A stretch of 64,000 bases of DNA from Podarcis vaucheri (Eukaryota), in NCBI GenBank assembly GCA_965113315.1, contig OZ220368.1; one strand, written 5' to 3'. Position 1 is the stretch's first letter; every line of letters begins with the position of its first letter. The notes below the pieces were generated by a model, which was not told the DNA's origin, did not search any database, and saw nothing but the letters and a program-made list of their open reading frames with translations. The position numbers were made by a program, and so were the translations under genes. This document shows, piece after piece, positions 3,747-58,968 of this stretch.

Positions 3747-4128
3747 CTGGAATATCAAAGAAATAATTAGGTCACTTGATTTAAAAAAAGGCTTTTCAAC
3801 CCTATGAGTTTTGGATTTAATTTGCATAAGTTTGCATATGAACAAAATGATTCTGAAGGGAAAAAAGCACCCTCTCTTGGTTTTTAGAAGATACATTTCT
3901 GTTTCCCAATAATCACCATATCAGAAAAGGCATTCCAACCTGTGTGTAAAAAGGAATGCTTCCTATGGAATTGTATCTATTTACTATTAAAAATAACTAA
4001 CATTTTTTATAACCCATGGCTCAACTAATAACGGGTATATTTAAACTGACTAAGTGACTTTAGAGTTCCATGATTCATACTTTAGGTTTCCCTTCTTCTA
4101 AATAAAATTTCAAATAAAATAAAGTAAA

Positions 4129-5477: not shown

Positions 5478-5756
5478 TAGAGCTATTATATTGTCATTGT
5501 CTGGCACAGTAGTAGCAGCTTTTAGCAAGAGCAACCTAGTTAAAATTTCAGGCTATAAACTTTAATGAGCTCCTCTCTCACACAGTATGCAACCAGTAGT
5601 TTTCACAATAGTTGGTATTAGATCAGACAAGAGGCTAGAACTCAAATACATATCTGCAGAATATTTAAAAGGCAGATTTCTACTTATTTTAAAAGTGTTT
5701 CACATTTTATTTTTTAAAGAAAAAAATGTGACTTGCTGATGGCAAAAGACACTGAC

Positions 5757-5837
5757 CTCAGCAATTGTGCTTCCAGTAGTATTTTTTGAAAGGTCATTGT
5801 ATATTTCTGTCATTGTTCCTTTTATGGCATCCATCAT
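5757..5837 (-). CDS. ZMYND8: ZMYND8 exon 17 (MMDAIKGTMTEIYNDLSKNTTGSTIAE)
   Basis: cag|ATG ATG...GAG|gtcag; 81 nt; too short for the ORF track. Confidence 0.95.
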
Positions 5838-6087
5838 CTGTTTAAAAAGAAAGTTTATTAAGGAATTAAAAGTGATCTTGCTTTTTAAATTTCTTTATCC
5901 TGGGAACATTCCATAATTTCTTATGTAGGATATTATAAAAACTACTGACACATTTTTCTTTGAATGGATTTTGTAAATCATATCAATAATATAAAAGAAA
6001 CCCAGCAACCACTGTATCTTAGGTCATAGTGATACCTCTTGACCTCTGAGATTCATCCACTCCACACACAATGGATAGAAGTGAACA

Positions 6088-6300
6088 ACTGAGCTTTAGG
6101 AAGAACTTTCTGCAATAAATGCTGCTCAATAGTGGAACGAACTACCTTGAAGGGTTGCGGACTCTCCCTCACTGGAGGTTTTTACACAGAGGTTAGATGG
6201 CCATCTGTCAGGGATTCTTTAGCAATGATTCCTGCATTGCAAGTGGTTGGGCTAGATGGCCCTTTGGGTTGCTTCACACTATATTTCTATGATTCTATGA
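6088..6300 (+). mobile_element. CR1 LINE 3' fragment
   Basis: ggaagaacttt...ctggaggttttta..cagaggttagatggccatctg; ends in ttctatgattctatga. Confidence 0.85.
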
Positions 6301-9065
6301 ACTTGGGTGGGATTCTGTGTGTGAATAAAAATATCACCTCTCCATTTAGTTCTTTTGATATCAGTTTCTAATCTTATTATGAGTAAAATCTCAGAAATCA
6401 AATAGCAAGTGATTATACAGAGCCATTATAAATGATTGCATGCAACATGATTGCATACCTGCCGGGGGGGCGTGTATCTGTGTGTGCCTCAGACAACAAT
6501 GTGGGGTGCCACGTGCTATGGTTAAATCACTTTACAGTATGTTTAGTTTGGTAGCCAGACAACTGGACTCTCAGACATGTGGCGAGTTCATAGTTCACTA
6601 TTTACTTTTTCAACCTGAATGCCATAGGTTCTCTCTAGATGGTGTTAAATTACAATATTGCCATGTATCTGTAATGCCATAAGAGCATTCAAATCACCAA
6701 CCACCATGTCAAAACACAGAATTCCATGTTGGCATTATTATAGCAGTTAGATCTCAAAATGACAAGCAGAATCCAACTCTATTCGCTTGCATACATCAGA
6801 CACCAACGAAGCATTCTGGAGCCGTTTACTTTTAATTTTAGTCCTAATTTATGCATTGAGAGTCTGAAATGCAGTACTCTGGGAATCTGTTCACAGTCTA
6901 CCATGCAAGCTGCTGATGCAGGATCAGATGTCAACATTCATGAGGTAGTAAAATGGATCAAGATACCTACAGGACTGAGATGGGAGAAAGAAACTGCATG
7001 AACTTTCTAAACATCATTTGTGACTTTATACATGGCATCAACTCACTGAGCGGTTTAGATAAACAGAGCAGATACCTGTGTTTCTCTCCACTTCATGCAA
7101 ATGGCTACATTGGAAAATGATGGGAGGAATTCCTCATTTTTGCTTTTCACGTCTATTTTTTTTTTATAGTAAGGTTCAATTTCTTAATTAAATAAAGTTA
7201 CATCAATAGAAACTGGAATGGCTTCTTAAAATAAAGACACTGGAGGCGGCAAATGCACTTCGTAAACATTTAAAGCACCACCCCTGGATGGCTCATTTTT
7301 CATCATTCTAAAACCTCTCATTATGTTTAAATGAACACATTTTAGAAGAACCACTTCACGCAAGAAGCAGGAGTTGTTTTTACTTCATGATTTTGGTACC
7401 TGAACAAAAATGGAATTACTTACTTGTCATTAATTGTTCTTCCAGTTGTGCTGCCCCTGTGTAGTCTCACTAGTGGTGTTAAGGTACGCCAGCTGTAACA
7501 CACGGGGAAACTTTCACAGCAGTATTTTAAACTGGCCAGCTATGCACTTAAGCTTGATGTTCAATGAAGCACCTGTTTACAGCCTTGCCTGCTCAGTTCT
7601 CATTCTGGCCACTTCTCCTTTGTCTTCCTTGAAGGAGTTCAGGTAGTACACAAGGCTAGTTTACCCAGGCAAGAAAGTATGGCTGAAAGATGCTGACTTG
7701 CCCAAGGCCAACCAATGAACTTTATGACTTACAAGTGATTTGAAATCTACTATTTCTCTCTTGCATATACAGAATGTGTAGCAAGTTTTTCAGGGAGAAG
7801 GTATGCAAGACTAGGCTTTACAGCCCTGCCTAAAAATAAAAATGTCAACCCTTCATATACAGTCCTTTATCTACCACATGTGTACCAGCTTAAAGCCTTT
7901 GGAACTGTTGTGTCACAGCTTGCACACATTAATTACAGGACAGTCCATCCTCTATCCCCACTCCACCACCAAAGCCCCCATATCTGTTTGGAAGCCATGT
8001 TTGGCAACTGTAGCTGAAAGCGCTTATCCAAAGATGCTGGCTTTCCCAAGCAAGAACCAATTGGTCACTGTGGCATACCACTTGCCCAGATAGGCCAAGC
8101 AAAAGCATCAGCTTCCCTGGCTACCAGAAACTCATATAGCTCAGCTACTCTCATACAGCTGTATCCAATGGGCTCCTGTACCAAATAGCTTCTATAGAGA
8201 TAGCTTTACATATCTGTAAGACTACTCTGTCCCAAGAAGTGCAGGGTTTAAGACTATTACTGTGACATCATTGCTCTGTACACTGAAGTGGAAAATACTC
8301 AGCTCAGAATACCATTTTTTTCCTAACAGAATATCAAAAATTCTCTCTTGTAGCCTTTACGCAAGAACACCTACATGGTGCCATCTCAGAGTCTTCCTTC
8401 AAATTCCACAAAGGCCCCCTTTTCTATTAAGCCTCAGGCTTAATATTTAGATCCTCATCTCCAATTGGAGCAAAGTTTAAGGACATGAAACTTGTATTAA
8501 TTTTTCTCTACTTTTCTCCTACTGCTTAAATATAGATTTTAGGCTCCTTGAGGCAAGCACTTGCATTTGTTTTCTCATTATTATTTTAATGCACCATACA
8601 GATGGTTGTCTATGCTTAAAGAAACACGCACGAAGTAGAAAAAAAAGCTTTGTCAAACACTACAGATAAATCTGATAAGTACTAATAAAATTATGATGTG
8701 CATACATATATCCACACATGTTGGGTTAATAAAATTTATCCATAAATGTATGTTAACCATGCATACATTCGGGCTGTTTTTGTCTCTTCCCTCCATCCCT
8801 GACCCCAAAACCCAAGCTTCTGTTTTTGGAGAACTACGGCAGGAAAAGTTGCAGTGCTTCCAGCTACACACCAGCAGCCAGTTTAAAATATTGCTGTTAA
8901 GGTTCTTCCACGTGTTCAAAGGTTAAACTTATCCACATCACAGGATGAGGAAAAATGTTCAGGCAAGTGGATAACCTGCTTTGTTGCACATCAGCAACTG
9001 CATTAACTTCAAAGTAAAACTTGTAAGAATGTAGTGCTTTTTAAAAACAAAAACAAAAAACTTAC

Positions 9066-9256
9066 TTTACTAGTATACTTAGCAATATCTGCAGCCACAT
9101 CTGCTGAAGCTGTTGCTATTGGCAAGTCTGTATTAACTGAAGATGAAAGTGTACTTGCTGATCCAGAACTGGTTACTATGGAAACAGGTTGAGTGCTTGT
9201 AACCAAGGTAATGGTTGACGTTGAAGTACTCTGAGTAATTTCTTTTTGCTGTACAG
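9066..9256 (-). CDS. ZMYND8: ZMYND8 exon 16 (VQQKEITQSTSTS...ADIAKYTSK)
   Basis: tag|CT GTA CAG...AAA|gtaag; 191 nt. Confidence 0.95.
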
Positions 9257-10481
9257 CTAAGGACACAAAACAAACCCACAAGTGAATCACTGCAGATTTC
9301 AATGCTTTTGAAATGTCAAAAAACAGGCAAACCAATGCTAAATAAATGCTGTCCAATAGCTTTTCACAGCTCAATCTTGAACATTTGTGTTGGTGGATTG
9401 GTGTGTGATGCTCCCATAATACTTCTTGCAGTGGTGACATACCTTATTCTGTGACAATATGCTGGCATAACTGTGTAAACCAGGGCAGAAAACCCTAAGA
9501 CAAGGCAGTTAAGGATTCTTAGGGCAACTTTTAGTGAGTGTCTATGCTGGTTTCACCAGCCACTGGAAAATACTCCTTAAAATGTACCATAGTGGGATAA
9601 TACCTTGATTATGGCCAAGTAAAATGTCACAAAGTAGTGAACAAGCTGTTGAGTTATTAGGAACTGTTCCAGTATGATATTAAGCAAAATGGGACATGGA
9701 GGGAGAGAAGGGGGGGAGCTGCAAATTCGGTTGATGGCCCAAAATCTACAGATTACAACTGTCTAAAGATATTAGGAAGATTTAATTAGATTAGTATCTG
9801 TTGGGCGCAAATTAAATTTCAAAATTAATTAGATTAAGAACTGCTAGGACAATAATAATAATGGCTGTTTCCCCATTTTTGGAAAATAAGAAATCTAGAA
9901 GTTACTTGGATCTATCCTCTTAAAAGGTTGGCACTCTTCGTTTTCATAACCATGTTTCACAGAAAATAAAAAACCTTCTTTCTTCACATAACAAGGGATC
10001 AACATGTTCTTTAAGGACAGCTTTATAACCAATCAAAATTATATGGTGGAATCTAACATTGCACAATGGACTTTATTTTCCTCACCTCTTCATTGCAGCC
10101 ATGCCCTAGTCCCCTGTCACACAAACAATTTGCACGGGAGGGTTTTCTAACTCTCCAGAGCAGATTTTAAGGGTGTGGGGGGTTATAAAGGGAGGGACTC
10201 AAGCACAGACAGCATTAGATACAACCTATATTGTGCCTCTCCATATTGATACAAGATAAGCTATGCCTTATCCCTGAAGTAGTTCACTTTCTTCCACCAA
10301 TAAATATTGGTGATTGCAATCATTTCCCTTCATATGGTTATTTCCACTTAAGAGAGCTCATTTTTCAGTTATAGATACATTTCATTTTATAATACTTACG
10401 AAATAATTAAAACTACAGTGGAAAGATATTGCAGTTCACATTCCAACTAAAATGCTGCAGATAAACAAATTATTTTAAGTA

Positions 10482-11974: not shown

Positions 11975-12213
11975 TATAAACTAATTGTAATATATGCAGT
12001 CCAAACCAAAAATTACATAAAACTCAGAAACTATAGAACAAAACACAAAATTCGCTTACAAATAACACCAGCAAAGGTGACACAAATTCAACTCTCCCTT
12101 TCTCACATTAAATACCGAAAGGTTTGAAATAATCTCAAAAAAAAAAACTTCTTGAAGTGTTTCTAACCTTTCTATCTACCATCTTCCTTGTCTGAGCATT
12201 GGAGAATACAGAT

Positions 12214-12335
12214 CAGGGATTGGGAACCAAAGGTCCCTCCAGATGTTGTTGAACTCAAACTCCCATCATCCAAGACCACTGGCCAGACTGGTAGGGGCTT
12301 ATGGGAGTCCAACATCTGAAGGGTGATAAGATACT
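12214..12335. mobile_element. Decayed copy of the ~136-bp palindromic hAT-type element
   Basis: ccctccagatgttgttgaactc..ctcccatcatcc / atgggagt..aacatctgaaggg. Confidence 0.7.
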
Positions 12336-13020: not shown

Positions 13021-13221
13021 TTTGTTGAGAAGGAACTTCCTCATAGTAAGAGCTGTCTGACAGTGGAATGGACTCCCTTGGAAGGTGGTGGACTCTTCTT
13101 CACTGGAGGTTTATAAGCAGAGGTTGGATAGCCCTCTGTCATGGATGCTTTAGCTGAGATGCCTGCATTGCAGGGGATTGGACTAGATGATCCTTGGGAT
13201 CCCTTTCAACTCTACACTTCT
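13021..13221 (+). mobile_element. CR1 LINE 3' fragment
   Basis: Same 3' end as the 6088 and 57068 copies (ctggaggttt..aagcagaggttggat, gcaggggattggactagatga). Confidence 0.85.
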
Positions 13222-28697: not shown

Positions 28698-28888
<191 letters not shown>

Positions 28889-31134: not shown

Positions 31135-31270
31135 CAGCCTCTCTCAACCTTCAGTTCTCAGATGCTGTTGGACTACAATTCTCATCATCCCTGACCACTG
31201 ATTCTGCTAGCTAGGGATGATGAGAGTTGTAGTCCAACAACATCTCAGGACCAATGGTTGAGAAAGGCTA
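31135..31270. mobile_element. Palindromic hAT-type element (136 bp)
   Basis: cagcct.tctcaacc / ggttgagaaaggct termini; TSD ctctatac/ctctatgc. Confidence 0.85.
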
Positions 31271-34769: not shown

Positions 34770-35312
34770 CCTAGAACCATAGAATCTCAGAGTTGGAAGG
34801 GACCCAAGGGTCATCTAGTCCAACCCCCTGCAATGCAGGAATCTCAGCTAAAGCACCCACGACAGATGGCCATCCAACCTCTGCTTAAAAACCTCCAGGA
34901 AGGAGAGTCCACCACCTCTAGTGGGAGTCTGTTCCACTGCCAAACATCTCTTACTATCAGAAAGGTTTTTCGAATGCTTAGTCGGAATCTCCTTTCTTGC
35001 AACTTGAAGCCATTGTTTGGAGTCCTACCCTCCAGAGCAGGAGAAAACAAGCTTGTTCCCTCTTCCATGTGACAGCCCTTAAGGTATTTGAAGTTGGCTA
35101 TCACATCTTCTCTCAGTCTCCTCTTTTCCACACTAAACATACCCAGCTCCTTCAAGCGCTCCTCAAAAGGCTTAGTTTCCAGATCCCTGATCATTTTGGT
35201 TGCCCCTTCTCTGCACATGTGGGGCCCAGAAGTGGACACAGTATTCCAGGTGTGGCTGACCAAGGCAGAATAGAGTGGTACTATTATTTCCCTTGATCTG
35301 CACCTATACTTT
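34770..35312 (-). mobile_element. CR1 LINE 3' portion (ORF2 C-terminus and 3' UTR)
   Basis: ORF 34844..35380 contains LYSALV...[20 protein letters not shown]...KYLKG; catagaat tail. Confidence 0.92.
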
Positions 35313-46259: not shown

Positions 46260-46395
46260 CAGGCATAGGCAAACTCGGCCCTCCAGATGTCTTGGGACTA
46301 CAACTCCCATCATCCCTGTCCACTGGTCTTGTTAGCTAAGGATGATGGGAGTTGTAGTCTCAAAACATCTGGACGGCCGTGTTTGCCTATACCTG
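46260..46395. mobile_element. Palindromic hAT-type element (136 bp), well preserved
   Basis: caggcataggcaaac / gtttgcctatacctg TIRs; perfect 8-bp TSD gtctacac. Confidence 0.92.
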
Positions 46396-57067: not shown

Positions 57068-57559
57068 CCTGGAATGCTGTATCCTGTTCTGGGCTCCACA
57101 ATTTAAGTAGGGTGTCGGTAAGCTGAAACGTGTGGGCAGGAGGGCAACCGATCTAATAAAGGGTCTGGAAACCAGGTCTTATGAGGAACAGTTGACGGAG
57201 CTGGGTATTTTTAGCCTGGAAAAGAGGAGACAGGAGATATGAAAGCCATGTAGCTTAGGGGCTGTCACATGGAAGATGGAGCAAGCTTGTTTTCTCCTGC
57301 TCTTGTGGTTAGGACTCAAACCAATGGCTTCAAGCTACGAGGAAGATTTCAACTAAACATCAGGAAGAACTTTCTGACAGTAAGATCTGTTTGACAGTGG
57401 AAGGGACTCCCTTGGAAGATGGTAGACTCTTTGGATGTTTTTAAGCAGAGATTGTATGGCCATCTGTCTTGGATGCTTTGGTTGATATCCCTACATTGCA
57501 TGGGGTTGGACTAGATGACCCTTGGATCCCTTCCAACACTGCAATTTTATGATTCTGTG
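57068..57559 (+). mobile_element. CR1 LINE 3' portion
   Basis: Same subfamily as 34770-35312 in opposite orientation; ends ttttatgattctgtg. Confidence 0.9.
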
Positions 57560-58823: not shown

Positions 58824-58968
58824 ACTAGGCATGTGGGGAACCTGTGGCCTTCCAGTTGCTACTGGAATTCAAGTCCCATCAGCTTCAGCCAGCAAAGCCA
58901 GTGGTCAGGGATGATTGTGTGAGTTGTAGTCCAACAATGCCTGAAGGTAACAGGTTTTCCATCTCTGC
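58824..58968. mobile_element. Decayed palindromic hAT-type element
   Basis: ggaacctgtggccttccag..tcccatca / gatgat..gagttgtagtccaacaa..gaaggtaacaggtt. Confidence 0.65.

Follow-up and report, generated by a model that had tools for sequence, protein, structure and literature searches.

A single-copy intronic inverted repeat at the acceptor of a stop-containing ZMYND8 exon in Podarcis vaucheri: a candidate splicing-control duplex

Introduction

Base pairing over long intronic distances has been linked to splice-site choice in a small number of well-described genes; statements on published systems here and below refer to the accessible parts of the cited sources. In Drosophila Atrophin (Gug), a conserved intronic stem suppresses an acceptor located inside its own 3' box, and introns with such stems are enriched for weak and for alternative acceptors (Raker et al. 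2009, PMC2724269). In BRD2 and BRD3 the arrangement is different: their poison exons (3b and 5b, respectively) are repressed by PCCR duplexes, and the authors regard them as the first examples of unproductive splicing controlled by PCCR structure (Petrova et al. 2024, PMC10789245). Published cases of such control are few. PCCRs in general obstruct inactive and cryptic splice sites and, in human, tend to avoid branch points and are often edited (Kalmykova et al. 2021, PMC8052449). A PCCR flanks 25% of cryptic poison exons, so that an association between the two is common (PMC11632617).

ZMYND8 is a bromodomain chromatin reader that requires its MYND finger to bind co-repressors (PMC3427357), and an early-ending isoform without the MYND domain, Zmynd8-short, has been described in mouse (Onodera et al. 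2012, PMC3427357). Further reported variants are a 12-nt Srrm4-dependent microexon in mouse (PMC4387716, PMC11283458), exon 22 in EMT (PMC6140460), an alternative-donor NMD event that forms the single Zmynd8 row of a mouse cycloheximide table (PMC11188260) and a novel first exon (bioRxiv 2025.12.16.693263); no match was made between any of these, as described in the accessible text, and the stop exon considered here. The accessible part of PMC9445031 held nothing bearing on the duplex or the exon, and the supplements of PMC11632617, PMC8052449 and PMC13187750 gave no ZMYND8 entry; a human counterpart could still be listed in the PCCR browser track or among the complete tables of cryptic exons. 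Likewise, no report of this duplex or of this stop exon was found in a literature search that mostly lay outside subscription journals.

Here, we analyse an inverted repeat in a window of 64,000 nucleotides of the Podarcis vaucheri genome (GCA_965113315.1, contig OZ220368.1), the window being the whole stretch of DNA studied. A first-pass annotation had marked the repeat as a candidate RNA duplex.

Results

The gene is ZMYND8, transcribed from the minus strand, as the first-pass annotation had it: in a protein search, the exon upstream of the repeat (9256-9066) matches lacertid ZMYND8 isoforms at 100%. The number 16 given earlier to the host intron holds if the first exon is so counted, and is otherwise 17. 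Three exons define the region.

9066..9256, minus strand: ZMYND8 coding exon before the host intron (protein search; GT-AG junctions from isoforms P0022 and P0174)
7424..7492, minus strand: alternative exon of 69 nt with two in-frame stops (isoform proteins; spliced alignment of P0022)
5757..5837, minus strand: next constitutive coding exon, MMDAIK... (protein comparison; spliced alignment)

The donor of the first of these joins either the stop exon or the next coding exon, and the latter is followed by four more junctions and by the coiled-coil and MYND exons, the MYND finger being encoded at 3158-2919 (minus). The two isoforms also differ further upstream, where alternative donors 15 nt apart follow the PHD exon, at 28776 (P0174) and 28761 (P0022) on the minus strand.

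The alternative exon has a CAG acceptor and a GTAAGT donor at 7423, and encodes LAYLNTTSETTQGQHNWKNN followed by two stops, the first at 7432-7430. Spliced alignment of P0022 places a GT-AG junction from 9066 to 7492, and the translation of the exon is identical to the tail of a Podarcis raffonei isoform. Among the best 120 of 1949 protein matches, MMDAIK follows the upstream exon in 104, while 7 continue after KYTSK with a LAY tail that reaches a stop within 6-23 residues. These seven proteins represent six squamate species, namely Podarcis muralis (two versions of one accession), P. raffonei, Lacerta agilis, Zootoca vivipara, Rhineura floridana and Paroedura picta. All are automatic predictions (RefSeq-type gene models), which lack the two C-terminal Pfam domains of the full-length forms and end before the MYND-finger exon. 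No LAY tail was present among a further 156 proteins (112 cluster members and 44 new matches). Hence, the isoform was seen in squamates only, and in none of the other 269 of 276 proteins (birds, turtles, crocodilians, mammals, frogs, snakes and iguanians), although the comparison covered the best 120 of 1949 and of 1769 matches and short tails score poorly, so that absence outside squamates is not thereby shown. Truncated tails in Panthera and Varanus, considered as possible relatives of the exon, are unrelated in sequence.

Comparison of the tails bears on how the exon has been kept. The Rhineura tail can be derived from the window exon by 4 substitutions and one 1-nt shift, a fit equalled by 0 of 200 shuffles. 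In Zootoca the window frame is followed to residue 12 and then the +1 frame, with 1 substitution, and the gecko tail, of 6 residues, is too short for a sure assignment (2 of 200 shuffles as good). Every version of the tail stops early. The exon thus looks constrained as nucleotide sequence or RNA and not as peptide, as judged from these alignments, its bases being shared by lacertids and an amphisbaenian (Rhineura) although the frameshifts differ. In Podarcis and Lacerta the stop lies inside the exon, and the K-stop ending of the Zootoca and Rhineura tails would fit either read-through of the donor or a 68-nt exon spliced out of frame. Since both routes are compatible with these tails, the donor was presumably kept or used in the two lineages.

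Splice-site strength was scored with a weight matrix built from the other sites of ZMYND8 (18 donors, 17 acceptors). In the intron interior, the stop-exon donor ranks 3rd of 193 GT sites and the acceptor 36th of 231 AG sites, i.e. a strong donor lies behind a weak acceptor. In sequence, the exon is what a poison exon would be expected to look like, being bounded by AG and GT and carrying a stop more than 50 nt before the last junction, with four junctions following the next exon; by the 50-nt rule for NMD, the cassette form would therefore be an NMD target. The downstream junction of the exon is predicted from donor strength, and the isoform tails fit splicing or read-through alike. With regard to a terminal exon, there is no AATAAA 3' of the exon until 5859, ATTAAA occurs at 6836, and weaker poly(A) variants are found at 7384, 7168, 7030, 6830 and 6606. 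NCBI tends to class predicted NMD transcripts as non-coding, and the protein accessions of the LAY isoforms consequently lean towards models that end in the exon. We place a poison cassette slightly ahead of a terminal exon, and both may occur. An A-rich run at ~7165-7155 (minus), ~260 nt after the stop exon, could give rise to internal oligo-dT priming and false annotated 3' ends.

The inverted repeat lies upstream of this exon in the pre-mRNA, and consists of two arms about 1.2 kb apart.

8829..8916, minus strand: arm B, the 5' arm in the pre-mRNA, with core 8877-8897 (repeat finder, duplex energy, fold)
7497..7601, minus strand: arm A, the 3' arm, with core 7516-7536 (repeat finder, duplex energy, fold)

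The repeat is real. The repeat finder reports 7497-7536 against 8877-8916 as 80% complementary, gapped extension reaches 7601 and 8829, and the match of 20 of 21 positions between the cores is confirmed. On the minus strand the single core mismatch sets A8891 opposite C7522, as claimed on first pass, both being unpaired (P 1.0) within a helix whose pair probabilities are near 1. The arm A/arm B duplex on the transcribed (minus) strand reaches -82.7 kcal/mol, a value matched by 0 of 300 dinucleotide shuffles (z -8.7), and when arm A is paired with 1500 random genomic 93-mers, the energies average -36.2 and go no lower than -62.1 kcal/mol. The complementarity of the arms is far above chance. For the flanks beyond the 21-mer, similarity by sequence alone is near the 95th percentile of background and the duplex energy has a z of -3.5.

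In a fold of 7400-9030 (1.6 kb), 70 pairs join the arms, with core probabilities near 1, and the stem oppositions on the minus strand comprise 55 Watson-Crick, 6 G·U, 5 A·C and 2 others. Mean unpaired probability over 7495-7536 is 0.17, as compared to 0.40 with arm B shuffled (3 shuffles). The fold between the arms is a prediction, of a long-range kind that leaves out proteins and kinetics. By energy and fold, two regions of one pre-mRNA are predicted to pair stably, as in PCCRs. An RNA thermometer acting by melting was considered and rejected: between 15 and 42 C the modelled pairing gain remains in the range of -51 to -38 kcal/mol. Rfam covariance models gave no match to 5700-9400 at E up to 1.

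Relative to the acceptor at 7492, arm A extends from -109 to -5 and so ends 5 nt before the acceptor of an annotated exon. Arm B occupies the stretch 150-237 nt beyond the upstream donor. A rough estimate puts the chance of an exon falling at the end of arm A by coincidence near 5%. The core 7516-7536 corresponds to -44 to -24, which we take from consensus to be the usual branch-point zone. The helix over -44 to -24 is near-certain (P ~1) and that over -19 to -5 weaker (P ~0.4). The 3' arm hence abuts an alternative acceptor, as in Atrophin, and the stop exon at 7492-7424 lies 3' of arm A and outside the loop, i.e. it is not looped out in the manner of BRD2 and BRD3.

We propose that the duplex probably hides the branch-point zone of the stop exon, whether this is a poison cassette or a terminal exon, and that the exon would then be mostly skipped so that full-length ZMYND8 is made. 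Arm B would be transcribed first and wait for arm A, which would emerge 1.2 kb later, about 70 bp forming co-transcriptionally. The helix would cover the branch-point zone and the pyrimidine tract, hindering U2/U2AF binding at the weak acceptor, and skipping of the stop exon would yield the MYND-containing protein. Upon failure of the helix, through fast elongation, a helicase, a binding protein or editing, the stop exon would be used, leading either to NMD, as at least four junctions would follow the stop, or to a MYND-less protein ending there. Masking is favoured by the combination of a duplex above chance, single-copy arms (see below), an exon at the end of arm A, constraint on that exon, a weak acceptor and published precedent. 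Repression, NMD and regulation by the duplex are steps that we infer from these features. By analogy, one point weighs against masking: human PCCRs tend to avoid branch points, and the ZMYND8 duplex would cover the likely zone. Also on this side are the equal stability of the duplex on the two strands (see below), the sighting of the LAY isoform in squamates only, the shortness of the gecko tail and the origin of the isoforms in automatic prediction.

The same arrangement could in principle act in the opposite direction: as a bridge, the duplex would place the upstream donor within ~155 nt of the stop-exon acceptor and so favour use of the exon. A role in donor-acceptor approximation has been proposed for the Nmnat stem (PMC2724269). 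At the ZMYND8 locus 150 nt separate the donor from the start of arm B and 5 nt the end of arm A from the acceptor, and the stem closest to the AG has a P of only ~0.4, all in agreement with bridging. However, the strongest helix (P ~1) sits over -44 to -24, presumably the usual branch-point zone by consensus, and the acceptor is already weak; we hold bridging to be unlikely.

A more serious contender is that the arms have no function and derive from a local inverted duplication, now decayed, or from an old, unrecognised element, and that the exon is splicing noise or independently controlled. Strand preference is relevant here. The first-pass annotation had read the differences next to the core as a G·U bias favouring pairing on the transcribed strand, so that minus should be the more stable. 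Such a bias is absent when duplex energies are compared (plus -82.8, minus -82.7 kcal/mol), as the core favours plus (-47.6 vs -40.0 kcal/mol) and the extension favours minus (-43.1 vs -37.7 kcal/mol), and the 11-nt G·U block next to the core forms no ungapped helix in the fold. Lack of preference for the transcribed strand is also what a neutral inverted duplication would be expected to show, and the near-equal numbers of G·U (6) and A·C (5) oppositions point the same way.

A search of the 1.6-Gb genome with either arm returned that arm alone, which bears out the view of the arms as single-copy, non-transposon sequence, with the proviso, in favour of an old element, that the DNA search skips common words. 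The 21-mer core has 2 exact genome matches, the arms themselves, where 0.027 are expected under an order-4 Markov model. At up to 2 mismatches there are 16 matches, the two arms and 14 others, with 25 expected, and this shortfall of near-matches argues against a former repeat; a reversed-pattern control (0 matches) is unfair, as merely 0.8 are expected for the reversed pattern. Among 13 near-match loci that were examined, a single flank reaches the 99th background percentile or more in 2, as might be left by an old element, and beyond that no arm-like sequence on both sides was present among the 13. No target-site duplication is visible by eye at the outer ends of the arms, again contrary to element remains. 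Transposon inverted repeats, either MITE ends or an inverted SINE/LINE pair, were rejected on the grounds that the arms are single copy and their near-matches below expectation. A genome search with 7300-9030 did detect one repeat fragment between the arms, with 3 other genomic places at 77-83% identity.

7672..7744, no strand assigned: short low-copy repeat fragment of 73 nt, in the loop and outside the arms (genome search with 7300-9030)

To the side of the arms, the window holds related repeat fragments in both orientations (34773-35205, 57142-57556, 13033-13219 and 6086-6300), a reading frame at 35434-34847 within this set presumably being the end of a CR1-type LINE, and a MITE-like family of short palindromic elements (31159-31245, 46284-46378, 58832-58937, 2764-2893 and 12210-12306).

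A regional scan covered 460 kb in 46 pieces of 10 kb, for inverted pairs of at least 36 bits placed 100-3000 nt apart. It returned 36 pairs, of which 33 have five or more other matches and thus involve repeated sequence, and 3, the ZMYND8 pair among them, have near-unique arms. Inverted pairs of this kind are uncommon, not unique. The other two, from the neighbouring 400 kb, are L041:459-498 with 737-776 and L059:3641-3679 with 3805-3843; their duplex energies are near -70 kcal/mol with flanks, which adds to the case for a functionless duplication. Against that case stand the end of arm A only 5 nt from an independently annotated acceptor and exon bases conserved to Rhineura at a level of at least 93% (from the isoform tail). 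On balance we give a functionless origin an appreciable, though clearly minor, probability. A pattern scan of metagenomes for vertebrate orthologues returned 5 loci with matches of 20-29 nt, which we read as chance.

A further suggestion of the first-pass annotation was that ADAR editing of A8891 gives rise to a new donor or acceptor, on the model of ADAR2 auto-editing. An A·C mismatch is a favoured ADAR site, and this one is set within a long helix. ADAR also prefers G as 3' neighbour, and the base 3' of A8891 is U; moreover, A8891 is not special, as the stems contain 5 A·C oppositions. Reading 8891 as G gives a donor score of 1.5 and an acceptor score of -4.8 with the weight matrix, i.e. rank 70 of 193 GT and rank 127 of 231 AG sites in the intron interior, and the acceptor score is below all 17 leave-one-out scores of real acceptors. 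No isoform matching an edited splice site at 8891 is found among the 276 proteins. A splice site created by editing is therefore very improbable, and that part of the earlier proposal is unsupported.

Editing may nevertheless touch the helix in another way. PCCRs are enriched for editing sites (PMC8052449), which makes ADAR editing of the helix plausible, by analogy, as a modifier of splicing. In a stronger form, editing of the A·C mismatches would tune duplex stability, I·C pairs tightening the helix and I·U loosening it, and would thereby set the extent to which the branch point is hidden, with no new splice site involved. We consider this an outside chance. If so, the ADAR activity of a tissue would set the ratio of full-length to degraded or MYND-less ZMYND8 in squamates.

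Finally, a 15-nt in-frame microexon candidate encoding HRQPS (8614-8600, minus) lies between the arms and would be looped out by the duplex. A pyrimidine tract and TGC precede its AG, a GT donor follows it, and the Srrm4-dependent microexon of mouse Zmynd8, 12 nt in length, offers a parallel (PMC4387716, PMC11283458). However, no position within this intron was identified for the mouse microexon, and the HRQPS candidate is carried by 0 of the 276 proteins and has weak sites (donor 2.0, acceptor 2.2). Lacking protein support and good splice sites, the candidate was dropped, and looping-out of such an exon is the least probable of the readings considered here.

Discussion

Structure-based control of splicing, as put forward on first pass, is supported by these analyses, for a different reason than the one given then: what carries it is the placement of arm A on the acceptor of the stop exon, which had been overlooked. 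The accompanying description as an undescribed system was too strong, as long-range intronic stems have already been described both for acceptor masking and for poison-exon repression (PMC2724269, PMC10789245, PMC8052449). This is a known kind of control, for which no report in ZMYND8 was found in the literature searched.

In geometry the locus may be likened to the Atrophin stem, and in outcome to BRD2 and BRD3. As in Atrophin and Nmnat, the 3' arm of the predicted long-range stem lies at an alternative acceptor and a single intron holds both arms, and the choice at Nmnat, between a terminal exon and reading on, is like one possible outcome for ZMYND8. The differences are considerable, to the extent that the source describes the fly stems (PMC2724269). 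The Atrophin and Nmnat boxes are conserved in 12 flies and compensatory mutation has been done there, whereas the ZMYND8 duplex is a prediction from sequence. The Atrophin acceptor adds 22 in-frame residues and the ZMYND8 exon carries stops. Unlike the fly stems, the ZMYND8 duplex has ~70 bp and 1.2 kb between its arms.

With BRD2 and BRD3, ZMYND8 shares the identity of a bromodomain chromatin reader and the pairing of a stop exon with an intronic long-range duplex, the consequence of exon use being, for ZMYND8 presumably, less full-length protein. There, as far as the accessible text describes, the arms flank the exon and loop it out, with energies of -29 and -34 kcal/mol (PMC10789245), while in ZMYND8 the exon lies outside the loop, the acceptor zone is in the stem and the energy is -83 kcal/mol. 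NMD has been shown for BRD2 and BRD3, and for the ZMYND8 exon we infer it. The duplex also resembles human PCCRs in being intronic, near splice sites and apparently obstructing a weakly used site; however, PCCRs are defined by conservation of both arms in vertebrate alignments, and a duplex known from one genome is not assignable to them (PMC8052449). Mouse Zmynd8-short, like the LAY isoforms, ends early and has no MYND domain, but the cause given for it is a murine-specific antisense transcript, which comes from an internal enhancer (PMC3427357).

If acceptor masking holds, ZMYND8 would add another bromodomain reader to these cases, in a reptile lineage and with a masking rather than a looping-out geometry, without opening a new class of mechanism. 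Given the need for the MYND finger in co-repressor binding, a switch upstream of the MYND exons would set both the dose and the type of the protein.

The host intron also contains four TGCATG motifs, which we take to be of RBFOX type, at 8763, 7099, 6907 and 6444 (minus). Three of them lie 3' of the stop exon, and they are possible regulators of its inclusion.
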